Source: a virus (lineage: Duplodnaviria; Heunggongvirae; Uroviricota; Caudoviricetes). Taken from it: a DNA stretch of 9,828 bases. The stretch spans positions 1 through 9,828 of IMG/VR virus record IMGVR_UViG_2537562191_000038; one strand, written 5' to 3'. Below, piece after piece: positions 1,174-9,828 of the stretch. Every line of letters starts with the position of its first letter. Position 1 is the first letter of the stretch. The translations under genes were made by a program, and so were the position numbers. A model generated the notes under the pieces. It searched no databases. It worked only from the letters and a program-made list of their open reading frames with translations, and had not been told where the DNA came from.

Positions 1174-2714
1174 TATTTGGTTGTAACACGGCGTCTGGCA
1201 CATGCGTCGTTAGCGGTCTGGTGACGTTAAAGGGGTAACCTTTCCCCTAGCTCAGGCAACAAACCAGGTAGCCGGAATGTGCAAGCCCCGTTCATAGCGT
1301 CGGACTGCGGATTCACCATCCTGGCGATTCGGTGTGACAGCCGGGAAGAGTCCGGCGCATTAATCCTGATTTTCTGGTGATGACTCATATCGTTAGGAGT
1401 GATTTGAGTATGCCGATTATATCTGACATTCAGCACGCCTGGGTGGAGTGCTAATGTCTGCATCCCCTCTTGAATCCATGCCAAATTCCCTTAGTGCAGA
1501 ACAAGCTGTACTTGGTGGCTTAATGCTTGATAACTGCCGCTGGGATGAAGTTGCAGATCGTATAGTTGCTGATGATTTTTATACCAGTGCTCATCGTGAA
1601 ATTTTCAGTGAGATGGAGAGGTTATTAAGTCATGGCAAACCGATTGATTTGATAACACTTGCTGAAGCACTTGAACAGAACGGTAAATTAGAACGCGCCG
1701 GTGGTTTTGCGTACCTTGCGGAGATGTCAAAGAACACGCCCAGCGCGGCAAATATTTGTGCTTATGCGGATATCGTTCGTGAACGCGCGGTTGTTCGTGA
1801 AATGATTTCCGTCGCAAATGAAATAGCTGAAGCTGGATATGCGCAGGATGGCAGGGGCAGCAATGAATTGCTGGATATGGCCGAGCGCCGCGTTTTTGAA
1901 ATAGCTGAAAAACGACAAAAGAGCGGTAGTGGTCCAAAAGATATCGCCAGCATTCTCGATGCAACGGTATCTCGCATAGAAGAGTTGTTTCAGCGACCGC
2001 ATGATGGTGTAACGGGGCTTGATACCGGATTTACCGATCTCAATAAGAAGACGGCAGGACTTCAGGCGTCCGATCTCATTATTGTCGCCGCCCGCCCATC
2101 GATGGGGAAGACTACGTTTGCGATGAATCTCGTCGAAAATGCCGCAGTCCGTAACGATAAGCCCGTATTGGTTTTTAGCCTTGAGATGCCGAGCCACCAA
2201 CTGATGATGCGCTCACTGGCTTCTCTTGCACGCGTTGATCAGACTCGTATTCGAACAGGGCAACTTAACGACGAGGATTGGGCGCGGGTTTCTGGCGCAA
2301 TGGGGATTCTGTTGGACAAGCAGAATATTTTTATTGATGACTCAAGCGCCCTGACACCTACAGAGCTTCGTTCCCGCGCTCGTCGTGTTTATAAAGAAAA
2401 TGGTGGTTTGAGCATGATTATGATCGACTACCTGCAACTTATGCGCGTCCCCGAGCTGCAAGATAACCGAACGCTGGAAATTGCCGAGATTTCTCGCTCA
2501 CTGAAGGCTTTGGCGAAGGAATTACAAGTACCGGTGGTGGCATTGTCACAACTTAATCGATCGCTTGAACAGCGTGCGGACAAACGACCGGTAAATTCAG
2601 ATTTACGTGAATCAGGAGCAATTGAGCAGGACGCAGACCTGATCATGTTTCTGTATCGCGACGAAGTTTATCACCCGGATAGCGAAATGAAGGGCATTGC
2701 CGAGGTAATTATCG

Positions 2715-2717
2715 GAA
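2715..2717. repeat. 3-bp target-site duplication (GAA), left copy, flanking IS629 copy 1
   Basis: GAA lies directly outside both IS termini (2715-2717 and 4028-4030). Removing the IS and one GAA restores an uninterrupted DnaB reading frame. Confidence 0.75.
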
Positions 2718-2759
2718 TGAACCGCCCCGGGTTTCCTGGAGAGTGTTTTATCTGTGAAC

Positions 2760-3650
2760 TCAGGCTGCCAGATCATCGTTTCCGATGGAAGCATAATAAG
2801 CTTTTTCTGCTTCTGCCGGAGGAGTATGGCCCAGCCTTCCCAGCAATCGTCGATTGTTATACCAGTCCACCCACGTTAGTGTGGCCAGTTCCACTTCTGC
2901 ACGGTTTTTCCAGCTCTTACGGTGTATTACCTCCGCTTTGTAAAGACCATTGATGCTCTCAGCCATCGCGTTGTCATACGAGTCTCCTGTACTCCCTGTT
3001 GATGCCAGTAATCCGGCTTCTTTTAGTCGCTCCGTATAGGCCAGTGACACATACTGAGAGCCTTTATCGCTGTGATGGATGGTGCCAGACGGACGACGGG
3101 CCCACAACGCCTGCTCCAGCGCATCCAGCACGAATGTCGTTTCCATAGACGATGAGACCCGCCACCCCACGATGTATCCGGCAAACACATCAATGATAAA
3201 CGCCACATAGACGAAGCCCTGCCATGTGCTGACGTAAGTAAAATCAGCCACCCACAGCTGGTCAGGTCGTTCTGCCACGAACTGACGGTTTACGCGGTCG
3301 CCTGCGGCAACGGCTTTCCGGCTGATGGTCGTACGGACCTTTTTACCCCGGAGAACACCGGCAAGTCCCATAACCGCCATGAGACGTGCCACTGTACATC
3401 TGGCCACCCTGATTCCTTCCCGTAACAACTGACGCCAGACTTTACGCACACCGTACACCTGATGATTTTCATCGTATACGCGCTGTATCTCTCTCTTCAG
3501 CCAGTCGTCGTGCTGCGCACGGGCACTGCGTTTATCCGGATGATGTCGCTGTTGCTGACAATGGTAATACGTTGACGGGGCAATATGCAGTTCGCTGCAT
3601 ACCGGTCCGACCCCGTACTGCTCACGCAGCTTATCCAGCAGTGGCATCAT
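2760..3650 (-). CDS. IS629 OrfB (DDE integrase-core transposase), 296 aa from the MMPLLDKL start; the same frame is open upstream to an ATG at 3731 in this copy
   Basis: Translation contains a retroviral-integrase-like DDE core (WVADFTYV..., HHSDKGSQY..., ...[14 protein letters not shown]) and is identical to the partial OrfB of copy 2 over the shared portion. The 323-aa ORF in the track (2760-3731) includes a 27-codon upstream extension created by the two homopolymer differences. Confidence 0.85.
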   Translation of the reverse strand: MMPLLDKLREQYGVGPVCSELHIAPSTYYHCQQQRHHPDKRSARAQHDDWLKREIQRVYDENHQVYGVRKVWRQLLREGIRVARCTVARLMAVMGLAGVLRGKKVRTTISRKAVAAGDRVNRQFVAERPDQLWVADFTYVSTWQGFVYVAFIIDVFAGYIVGWRVSSSMETTFVLDALEQALWARRPSGTIHHSDKGSQYVSLAYTERLKEAGLLASTGSTGDSYDNAMAESINGLYKAEVIHRKSWKNRAEVELATLTWVDWYNNRRLLGRLGHTPPAEAEKAYYASIGNDDLAA

Positions 3651-3727
3651 TTTTCCAGAGGCGGTCGAACTCCGCCTTCGCAAAATAAGCGGAAGCCTGG
3701 CGAAGGATATCGTTACTGCGGCGCAGT

Positions 3728-3973
3728 TCACGATTTTTCACGTTCCAGCTCTTTCAGACGCTGACGTTCAGCGCTGGTGAGCCCACCATCACCGCCCCCG
3801 GTATCCCGCTCATGCTGGCGAACCCAGACACGCAGAGTCTCCGGCGTACAGCCAATCTTTGGGGCAATGGAACAAATTGCCGCCCACTGTGAGTCATATT
3901 CATCCTGACTTTCCAGAACCATACGAATCGCCCGCTGACGGACTTCGGGGGAAAAACGAGTATTTTTAGTCAT
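3728..3973 (-). CDS. IS629 OrfA (helix-turn-helix transposase subunit), shortened variant (81 aa instead of 108 aa in copy 2)
   Basis: Identical to copy-2 OrfA up to ...KELERE, then KS-stop. The plus-strand T-run at 3734-3738 has 5 T where copy 2 has 4 A (8995-8998), shifting the frame. Confidence 0.8.
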
Positions 3974-4000
3974 CCTGTTTACCTCTTTCTCAGGGAGTTT

Positions 4001-4027
4001 AGTCTCCAGGATTTCCGGGGCGGTTCA
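4001..4027. repeat. IS629 left terminal inverted repeat (copy 1)
   Basis: Reverse complement reads TGAACCGCCCCGGAAATCCTGGAGACT, matching the right end at 2718-2744 (TGAACCGCCCCGGGTTTCCTGGAGAGT) at about 22 of 27 positions. Confidence 0.8.
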
Positions 4028-4030
4028 GAA
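4028..4030. repeat. 3-bp target-site duplication (GAA), right copy, flanking IS629 copy 1
   Basis: See left copy at 2715-2717. Confidence 0.75.
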
Positions 4031-4130
4031 AGCAACGAAATGGCCCAATTGGCACGGTGAGATTGGCTTTTAACGGCCAATACTCACGGTTTGATAACTA
4101 TGCTGGTGCTGACTGGCAAGAGGATTATTA

Positions 4131-5129
4131 ATGCAATGGAATGAGGAAAAGCCGATGAACATCCTGATCATTGGGCGAAAATTTGAAGCTATCAGTGATG
4201 TGAAAACATATACGGAAATGTGGGCTTACAACCTGGCCTGCGCCTTTAGTGAGGCAGGGGTAACATTGCAATTCCATCGTCCATATTCCCCCGGCGTCGA
4301 AAGCCCGGAGGATTATGTTGAAGCTGTGTTGACCGCTGCGACCTCGTGTTCTGCGAAAGCCATTTTAGCGCCAGGATTGCGGTATTTTACTACGGTGCCC
4401 AGGGAAATAGGCGTGCAACTGCGTCGTCGATTCACTGGATGGGTAGCCCAGGTATACGACGGTTCTATGCTGGATTCGGCACCAGTCGATATTACTTTTA
4501 CTGTCCGCGATGATACCTGGCGGTACCTGGATAATCCCGGCAGGTTAGAGCGTCATAATCGCTTTAACAAACATGTTGGATGGGCAGCGAATCAGGATCT
4601 GTTCCATCTGGAAACCAAAACAGACGATGTTCTGCGTATTTTTGTAGACCACGCTGCATTTGATGTTAGTGGGTTTGATCACTCCTTAAGTATCCTTATG
4701 AACCTTCAGCGTCTGACCGTTCCGTATGAGGCCAGAACGTTGACCGATGACGGATTGATTACCATTGATCCGGGGAATATATCGGTAACCCCATACAGAC
4801 GGACGCCGGTACCAGCAACCGAATTTGCAGCTGAATTGCGTAAGAGTGACGTGTTTATCGTTACGCATCCCGAAAGCCTTGGATTAACTGTACTTGAGGC
4901 GGCAATGTGCGGGGCGTTGGTATTAACGCCTCCCGATTGTCTTCCGCCAGATCGCCTGGCTTTGGTGAACCATATGGTTATCAAGTCGCGGATTGATTGG
5001 GATGAGGTTATTGCTCGCGTTGATCGCGTGAAAAATGCTGAAAAGGTCCAGTGTCACACCTGGTCGGCAATTGCGGAAAAGATGCTTGAGACGTTTGTCA
5101 CGCAGAAACCGTCGCGCGGTAACGGATAA
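4131..5129 (+). CDS. Glycosyltransferase-like protein, GT-B fold with an EX7E motif (GT4-like), 332 aa, no confident substrate assignment
   Basis: C-terminal segment SDVFIVTHPESLGLTVLEAAMCGALVLTPP matches the retaining GT-B EX7E signature (E-SLGLTVL-E followed by A-x-G). The N-terminus MNILIIGRKF looks like the start of a Rossmann-type domain. ATG at 4131 overlaps the helicase stop (TAATG); an alternative start at ATG 4155 has a GAGGA site 7 nt upstream. No signal peptide or transmembrane segment is evident. Family call is from motif recognition only. Confidence 0.5.
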   Translation: MQWNEEKPMNILIIGRKFEAISDVKTYTEMWAYNLACAFSEAGVTLQFHRPYSPGVESPEDYVEAVLTAATSCSAKAILAPGLRYFTTVPREIGVQLRRRFTGWVAQVYDGSMLDSAPVDITFTVRDDTWRYLDNPGRLERHNRFNKHVGWAANQDLFHLETKTDDVLRIFVDHAAFDVSGFDHSLSILMNLQRLTVPYEARTLTDDGLITIDPGNISVTPYRRTPVPATEFAAELRKSDVFIVTHPESLGLTVLEAAMCGALVLTPPDCLPPDRLALVNHMVIKSRIDWDEVIARVDRVKNAEKVQCHTWSAIAEKMLETFVTQKPSRGNG

Positions 5130-5151
5130 AAAATTGAACCCGTCATAACAG

Positions 5152-5174
5152 AAAAGCCCGAACGCCGGGCTTTT
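5152..5174. terminator. Bidirectional rho-independent terminator between convergent genes
   Basis: AAAA-GCCCG-aacgc-CGGGC-TTTT: a 5-bp GC-rich stem with 5-nt loop, flanked by an A-run upstream and a T-run downstream. It lies between the stop of the plus-strand gene (5129) and the stop of the minus-strand gene (5176). Confidence 0.6.
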
Positions 5175-5175
5175 C

Positions 5176-8322
<3,147 letters not shown>

Positions 8323-8705
8323 TTATCCTTTCCGTTTACGGGCTTCGTTAATTTGTGTCTCAAGAATGCTTCGCGCCTGCGCAGTGGCAGCGGCCTTGTC
8401 CATTCCCTGACTCATGAAAAACTTTATGAGGTTGTTCGCCTGCGTTTGCAGGGCTTTTTTGAGAGCGTCGGCTTCAGCGCGAGCCTGGGCTTCCCTCACC
8501 CGCGATGCTTTTAGTTCGGCATTCTTCCTGTTTGCCGTGGTGCGAGCTTTTTTTAACAACCGGCGAACGTTGTCCGTGGCGCTATCTTTTGCGCGTAGTT
8601 TTTTGCCTAATGCATCCTGAGATTTCAGATACAGCTCATACTCACGCGCAGCTTTAGCCTGATCCGTCGTTGTTGTCCGGTTGCGCGCGAGCGATTTAGC
8701 CAGTT
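8323..8705 (-). pseudogene. 5'-truncated gene for a Lys/Ala/Arg-rich, probably coiled-coil protein (at least 126 C-terminal codons retained); N-terminal part separated or lost by the IS629 copy 2 insertion
   Basis: The reading frame is open on the minus strand from the IS boundary (8705) to the stop at 8323-8325, with no ATG in the first 48 codons (KLAKSLARNRTTTDQAKAAREYELYLKSQDALGKKLRAKDSATDNVRRLLKKARTTANRKNAELKASRVREAQARAEADALKKALQTQANNLIKFFMSQGMDKAAATAQARSILETQINEARKRKG). The 78-aa ORF in the track starts only at an internal TTG. Confidence 0.55.
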
Positions 8706-8759
8706 TGAACCGCCCCGGAAATCCTGGAGACTAAACTCCCTGAGAAAGAGGTAAACAGG

Positions 8760-9086
8760 ATGACTAAAAATACTCGTTTTTCCCCCGAAGTCCGTCAGCG
8801 GGCGATTCGTATGGTTCTGGAAAGTCAGGATGAATATGACTCACAGTGGGCGGCAATTTGTTCCATTGCCCCAAAGATTGGCTGTACGCCGGAGACTCTG
8901 CGTGTCTGGGTTCGCCAGCATGAGCGGGATACCGGGGGCGGTGATGGTGGGCTCACCAGCGCTGAACGTCAGCGTCTGAAAGAGCTGGAACGTGAAAATC
9001 GTGAACTGCGCCGCAGTAACGATATCCTTCGCCAGGCTTCCGCTTATTTTGCGAAGGCGGAGTTCGACCGCCTCTGGAAAAAATGA
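8760..9086 (+). CDS. IS629 OrfA, full length (108 aa)
   Basis: [22 protein letters not shown]...[34 protein letters not shown], with stop TGA at 9084-9086 inside the A6 run and ATGATG region typical of an IS3-family frameshift window. Confidence 0.9.
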
Positions 9087-9828
9087 TGCCACTGCTGGAT
9101 AAGCTGCGTGAGCAGTACGGGGTCGGACCGGTATGCAGCGAACTGCATATTGCCCCGTCAACGTATTACCATTGTCAGCAACAGCGACATCATCCGGATA
9201 AACGCAGTGCCCGTGCGCAGCACGACGACTGGCTGAAGAGAGAGATACAGCGCGTATACGATGAAAATCATCAGGTGTACGGTGTGCGTAAAGTCTGGCG
9301 TCAGTTGTTACGGGAAGGAATCAGGGTGGCCAGATGTACAGTGGCACGTCTCATGGCGGTTATGGGACTTGCCGGTGTTCTCCGGGGTAAAAAGGTCCGT
9401 ACGACCATCAGCCGGAAAGCCGTTGCCGCAGGCGACCGCGTAAACCGTCAGTTCGTGGCAGAACGACCTGACCAGCTGTGGGTGGCTGATTTTACTTACG
9501 TCAGCACATGGCAGGGCTTCGTCTATGTGGCGTTTATCATTGATGTGTTTGCCGGATACATCGTGGGGTGGCGGGTCTCATCGTCTATGGAAACGACATT
9601 CGTGCTGGATGCGCTGGAGCAGGCGTTGTGGGCCCGTCGTCCGTCTGGCACCATCCATCACAGCGATAAAGGCTCTCAGTATGTGTCACTGGCCTATACG
9701 GAGCGACTAAAAGAAGCCGGATTACTGGCATCAACAGGGAGTACAGGCGACTCGTATGACAACGCGATGGCTGAGAGCATCAATGGTCTTTACAAAGCGG
9801 AGGTAATACACCGTAAGAGCTGGAAAAA
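9083..9828 (+). CDS. IS629 OrfB transposase (DDE), 3'-partial at window end
   Basis: Starts ATGATG at 9083 in the -1 frame relative to OrfA. Translation [22 protein letters not shown]... is identical to copy-1 OrfB and is cut by the window edge within ...HRKSWKN. Confidence 0.85.

Follow-up and report, generated by a model that had tools for sequence, protein, structure and literature searches.

Interruption of tail gene 25 of a P1-like plasmid prophage by an IS629/IS1203-type element at the edge of a draft contig

We report that the late tail operon of a P1-like plasmid prophage of E. coli is cut by an insertion sequence. In the stretch of DNA analyzed here (the window, 9,828 bp), gene 25, annotated as encoding a tail stability or virion-associated protein, is interrupted after codon 279 by a 1.3-kb IS629/IS1203-type (IS3-family) element and, as read from the sequence, knocked out. 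We consider it most likely that the late tail operon has undergone a recent, polar knock-out, in a prophage that is itself decaying. The event is of an ordinary and already known kind, in which an IS inactivates a known phage gene, here seen where a draft contig ends. A preliminary description, which proposed for the same locus that the operon may now depend on the IS for its transcription, is for the most part not borne out by our analyses.

Results

Comparison with sequenced relatives shows the window to be part of a P1/P7-like plasmid prophage (phage-plasmid) of E. coli. Positions 7900-8705 are 100% identical in nucleotide sequence to many E. coli P1-like plasmids and 99.3-99.9% identical to phages P1, P7, RCS47 and JL22, and the gene layout of the window matches that of P1, with ban and dbn on the plus strand and genes 5, 6, 24 and 7 on the minus strand. 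The ban gene, which encodes the P1 DnaB-type helicase, spans 1454..4133 (+) and is split by a first copy of the IS into the parts 1454-2717 and 4028-4133, and dbn follows at 4131-5129 (+). In the annotation of the P1 genome (AF234172), the promoter LP26 is followed on one strand by genes 26, 25, 7, 24, 6 and 5, with dbn and ban adjoining on the other strand, and no internal promoter is shown within this series. The 4,678-bp segment that lies between the two IS copies of the window is collinear with uninterrupted plasmids and 99.6% identical to them. The window is the entire draft contig AEZU02000009.1 (assembly GCA_000194335.2), which stops inside the second IS copy, at IS position 1,123; both window limits (1 and 9828) are assembly breaks and not biological ends. 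Upstream of ban, a tRNA with the anticodon CAT (1098-1173, +) occupies the position of P1 trnI, which is annotated as tRNA-Ile2 in P1. Ahead of this tRNA lie an SPFH/Band_7 protein and a small membrane protein (26-262 and 243-1070, +), where P1 has tciABC. This end of the window is P7-like in its SPFH protein and resembles variable-region variants of other P1-like plasmids.

The minus-strand fragment at 8323..8705 is the 3' part of P1 gene 25, and comprises codons 280-405, the stop codon and 2 nt of codon 279. All 126 of its residues are identical to residues 280-405 of P1 gp25 (405 aa; AAQ14053.1), its nucleotide identity to P1, P7 and hundreds of P1-like plasmids is 99.3-100%, and it matches positions 281-410 of the 410 positions in the profile phrog_1722 'tail protein' (E=2.4e-42). 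The frame that ends at the stop codon 8323-8325 is open to 8705 and then for 9 more codons into the IS. Its first ATG, GTG or TTG is the TTG at 8559, with no start codon between 8559 and the IS, and a complete gene 25 ORF of ~405 aa with its own start codon is absent from the window. The preliminary description was therefore correct in reporting an ORF without a start that abuts the IS end at 8706. What has been called as an ORF of 78 aa at 8323-8559 represents a piece of a pseudogene, and the practical use of the present analysis is an annotation note to this effect. The N-terminal part of P1 gp25 (P1 locus 7427-8641), which falls outside the window, carries at residues ~190-238 a C-x-C...C-x-H pattern (FDCDCGRHQYW...GVACKHVLH) that we take to resemble a SWIM-type zinc finger, a pattern that is unusual for a protein annotated 'tail stability'. 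Gene 25 belongs to the 21 genes that are best conserved in P1-like phage-plasmids (PMC9603915), and its product is weakly detected in P1 virions (PMC9024508).

The element next to the fragment (copy 2; 8706..9828, +) is an IS629/IS1203-type member of the IS3 family; the contig ends within it, so that, counted from its left end, 1,123 of its 1,310 bp are present. Its terminal inverted repeat, TGAACCGCCCCGGAAATCCTGGAGA, begins exactly at 8706, and its visible parts are the left inverted repeat (IRL) at 8706-8730, orfA at 8760-9086, a frameshift pseudoknot at 9041-9157, and orfB from 9083 onwards. The IRL abuts the gene 25 fragment, with the transposase genes pointing away from it. A complete copy of 1,310 bp (copy 1; 2718..4027, -) lies in ban, and copy 2 matches copy 1 over its whole visible length, at 100% in three arms that are offset by two 1-nt homopolymer indels. 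The IRL and the right inverted repeat (IRR) are each 25 nt long, are 88% complementary and both start with TGAACCGCCCCGG, and the element has the ends 5'-TG...CA-3'. The slippery run A6G is found at 9074-9080, and the ALIL pseudoknot (RF01497) is present in both copies, with 121.5 bits in copy 2 and 115.7 bits in copy 1. The Pfam domains HTH_Tnp_1, HTH_21 and rve (PF00665; DDE transposase) are recorded on the called IS genes, and the closest copies in E. coli genomes bear the annotation 'IS3-like element IS1203 family transposase', with 97.6% nucleotide identity over the 379 bp compared, of which ~345 bp are IS.

On either side of copy 1 stands one GAA of a 3-bp target duplication (2715-2717 and 4028-4030), and in-silico removal of the element together with one GAA restores a Ban of 454 aa, in which 453 of 455 alignment positions (stop included) are identical to P1 Ban. 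As it stands, the truncated Ban reads 78 extra codons into the antisense strand of the IS (ORF 1454-2953). For copy 2, the right end lies outside the contig, and the 3-bp GAA duplication of copy 1 is the one that can be seen in the window. An inversion between the two inverted IS copies was considered and rejected, because copy 1 has matching flanks and a target duplication that restores ban. The homopolymer differences between the copies amount to two compensating 1-nt changes, at ~3650-3654 and ~3735-3737 in copy 1 and at 9074-9080 and 8995-8998 in copy 2, respectively. Copy 1 has A5 for A4 in orfA and A5 for A6 at the slippery run, and this shortens its orfA to 81 aa and abolishes the A6G signal; the changes may represent a defective copy, or they may be sequencing errors of the draft assembly.

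The four genes that follow gene 25 in the P1 late operon are all present in the window and collinear with that operon, with order, overlaps and sizes as in P1, while gene 26 and LP26 fall past the end of the contig. On the minus strand, these are gene 7, encoding a tail protein (7591..8319; 242 aa, 240/242 identical to P1 gp7; phrog_1906, E=3.7e-136), gene 24, encoding a tail terminator or baseplate protein (6819..7604; 261 aa, 260/261 identical to P1 gp24; phrog_1767), gene 6, for the baseplate hub (5801..6817; 338 aa, 335/338 identical to P1 gp6; phrog_1390), and, at the end of the operon, gene 5, for a baseplate spike that is T4 gp5-like without the lysozyme (5176..5808; 210 aa, 207/210 identical to P1 gp5; phrog_430). 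The product of gene 24 has been described as the tail terminator and that of gene 6 as the baseplate hub, in a study that also covers gene 5 (PMC9024508). The four proteins are full length, with 98.6-99.6% protein identity to P1. The ATG of gene 7 is at 8319, 3 nt past the gene 25 stop, with its Shine-Dalgarno sequence GGAAAGGA within the 3' end of gene 25; similar purine-rich stretches precede gene 6 (GGAGGA) and gene 5 (AGGAG), and gene 24 starts at an overlapping GTG after GAAGGG. Hence the earlier observation that the four downstream genes are intact and have ribosome-binding sites holds. All four are phage late genes with no need of expression in the lysogen, and their expression without gene 25 would not rescue tail assembly.

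The preliminary description took the gene 25 fragment for the first gene of the operon, but in P1 both gene 26 and LP26 precede it. It further proposed that the operon may now depend on transcription derived from the IS, and for this we find no support in the sequence. A consensus scan for sigma-70-like sites came back empty for the outward (minus) strand of 8706-9828 and for the corresponding strand of copy 1, and a relaxed scan along the whole 1.7-kb read-through path gave 2 weak sites against 6.5 ± 3.2 in shuffled sequences, with the proviso that consensus scans of this kind may miss weak or non-canonical promoters. The motif of the P1 late (Lpa-dependent) promoters, taken from LP26 as AAATGACTA-N4-TAGAAT (a -22 element plus a -10), occurs nowhere in the window (0 matches), even when as many as 3 mismatches are tolerated. 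The antisense strand of the IS left end (8706-8760), where an outward -35/-10 pair had been suspected, was scanned and contains nothing promoter-like. In the IS3 family, an outward -35 located in the IRR pairs with an inward -10 in the IRL upon circle formation (PMC9330008), and the outward element thus belongs to the other end of the IS. We conclude that the IS probably supplies no promoter for genes 7, 24, 6 and 5.

It is in keeping with these scans that we consider it very unlikely that an outward (antisense) promoter at the left end of the IS, or a cryptic one within what is left of gene 25, now drives genes 7, 24, 6 and 5. IS elements in general are able to switch on genes next to them (PMC9330008), and the remnant does contain one weak sigma-70-like match (TTAACG-18-GATAAT, 8351-8322, minus strand), the only one to reach 9/12. 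However, the match is no better than chance, with 1 found against 2.4 ± 1.7 in shuffles, and its -10 hexamer ends only 2 nt upstream of the gene 7 ATG, with nothing but G8320 and C8321 between them, so that a transcript started from it would be missing the start codon or the Shine-Dalgarno sequence and would give no translatable gene 7 message. Nor is there a selective reason for a lysogen to express these four tail and baseplate genes when gp25 is lacking. We regard as hardly credible the further suggestion that genes 7-24-6-5 stay active in the lysogen, through antisense transcripts that leave the IS629 at its left end or through a cryptic start within the remnant, and that the orphan contractile-tail parts are of some use to the host.

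Discussion

In our assessment, the IS in gene 25 is probably the result of a simple and recent insertion. A simple event is favored because copy 1 went cleanly into ban, with duplication of 3 bp, and because comparable elements in pCUPF12A and CP027223 are simple insertions too, and a recent one because the segment between the IS copies has remained nearly identical to, and collinear with, that of uninterrupted plasmids, because the junction is absent from the collections that we searched, and because the two IS copies differ by only two homopolymer indels. The preliminary description held that the native promoter and the N-terminus are displaced or deleted. They are at least displaced, but the window gives no ground for inferring that the 5' end of gene 25 is lost, because the contig breaks off inside the IS and the region beyond is outside the view. 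After a simple insertion, the first 835 nt of gene 25 would sit just beyond the IS on another contig, along with gene 26 and the Lpa-dependent late promoter LP26, some 2.6 kb ahead of gene 7, and the IS right end would be followed by GTTCGCCTTTGAAATAGG..., the missing part of gene 25, with GTT or AGTT duplicated. Seen from the upstream side, the predicted gene 25 junction would read ...CCCGGGGCGGTTCA followed by GTT(C)GCCTTTGAAATAGG.

Searches for either junction gave no match to this particular insertion. None of 5,426 complete E. coli genomes and 72,556 plasmids (PLSDB) contains the gene 25/IS junction, and the only two full-coverage matches among them are different insertion sites; the observed left junction had 0 matches in genome representatives, and the predicted right junction had 0 in genome representatives and metagenomes. 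At the protein level, a homology search with the predicted chimera of gp25(1-279) and the IS antisense tail gave no match that covers the chimera, and an exact look-up of 10 chimera variants (with 3-bp or 4-bp target duplications and known N-terminal polymorphisms) found none in the protein collection.

As an alternative, which we judge unlikely, position 8706 may mark the breakpoint of an IS-associated deletion or rearrangement, which took away or relocated LP26, gene 26 and the 5' part of gene 25 and left genes 7-24-6-5 as a silent, decaying, promoterless orphan remnant. Such an outcome could arise through adjacent deletion, through recombination between IS copies, or through IEE-type excision, and IS629 does promote adjacent deletions with IEE (PMC9330008). 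A precedent is found in CP061756 (NZ_CP061756.1), whose gene 25 carries an IS629-like element that is oriented as in the window and lacks a target duplication; the 5' part of gene 25 and gene 26 are replaced there by IS66 and hsdR. The partner junction of the window was not found in the searched collections, but the limits of what is searchable explain this failure as well. Furthermore, copy 1 is a clean insertion with its target duplication, so that the two visible copies have undergone no inversion or recombination with each other, and three of the four comparable IS629-like insertions in the P1-like plasmid family are simple. In CP027223, for its part, an IS629-like insertion in gene 6 is simple, with the target duplication AAG. 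We find it scarcely conceivable that the gene 25/IS junction is an artefact of assembly, produced by the mis-joining of a repeat at the contig end, with gene 25 intact in the real plasmid. The draft contig does end in a multicopy repeat, and the two homopolymer-length differences of copy 1 look like sequencing errors; the junction, however, coincides to the base with the beginning of the IS terminal repeat (TGAACC...), just as real transposition would have it, whereas a mis-join would fall in shared sequence, and gene 25 and the IS share no sequence able to seed one.

If the insertion is indeed simple, any transcript of genes 7, 24, 6 and 5 would have to be initiated at LP26 when the lytic cycle is induced, pass through gene 26 and the first 835 nt of gene 25, and then cross the IS antisense. 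Translation would run into the IS from the IRR, and the frame set by a 3-bp target duplication would continue for 78 codons, in the same antisense frame of the IS that extends the truncated Ban in the window. This would leave ~1.07 kb of IS antisense RNA together with the 383-nt remnant (~1.4 kb) untranslated ahead of the gene 7 start, and Rho-dependent polarity would be expected to reduce downstream expression strongly. The composition of the antisense IS RNA, with 28.8% C versus 24.6% G, is compatible with Rho loading. There is no convincing intrinsic terminator on the read-through path, where a marginal 5-bp stem at the IRR tip (2727-2739) was the only candidate, and any polarity would therefore be Rho-dependent.

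A young insertion can also account for the state of the downstream genes, which presumably look perfect because the insertion is recent and not because they are kept in use. With ban hit by the same type of IS, we infer that the prophage is in early decay and survives as a plasmid. With one IS629/IS1203 copy in tail gene 25 and another in ban, the phage-plasmid of the window is probably unable to make stable tailed particles. The more general lesson is that an ORF that seems 'truncated' at a contig-terminal repeat should not be taken for a deletion.

Tail-gene decay in plasmid prophages is commonplace, and gene 25 itself has been damaged in several ways. The gene 25 of CP027223 has a frameshift, and five other contigs encode the same 78-aa remnant ORF, with lesions that consist of a Mu-like prophage, another IS, a 1-nt insertion, a 1-nt deletion and a nonsense mutation; the gene 25/IS junction of the window is in none of these five. 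In NWRM01000028.1 (about 4500-6000 of the locus examined), the Mu-like prophage has its MuA, MuB and Gam genes next to the gene 25 remnant. Three independent IS629-like insertions in gene 25 were observed, in NZ_CP182160.1 (4323-5632 of the locus), in NZ_CP061756.1 (4305-5614 of the locus) and in the window (from 8706), with the transposase antiparallel to gene 25 in 3/3. It is a remote possibility that gene 25 is a preferred and orientation-biased target of IS629-type elements in P1-like plasmids, a bias that at n=3 is not significant.

Comparison with known systems

The element in the window shares with IS629, IS1203 and IS1203v of E. coli O157 and Shigella the length of 1,310 bp, the TGAACCGCCCCGG... 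repeats, the arrangement of orfA and orfB around A6G and ALIL, a DDE (rve) transposase and the 3-bp duplication, although it is not identical to the O157 copies of IS629/IS1203. IS911, IS2 and IS3, in which hybrid or junction promoters are known, belong to the same IS family, and theirs is the mechanism that the preliminary description had invoked. The window differs from these cases in that the IRL and not the IRR faces the genes, there is no outward -35/-10, and the nearest start codon is 387 nt from the IS end. The closest parallel is the plasmid pCUPF12A (NZ_CP182160.1), in which the IS type, the target gene 25 and the orientation, with the transposase antiparallel to gene 25, are all as in the window. 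There, the insertion in gene 25 is simple, with the target duplication CCC, and both gene halves are present and annotated as pseudogene parts. The two insertions differ in their site, with a gene 25 3' fragment of 855 nt in pCUPF12A versus 383 nt in the window.
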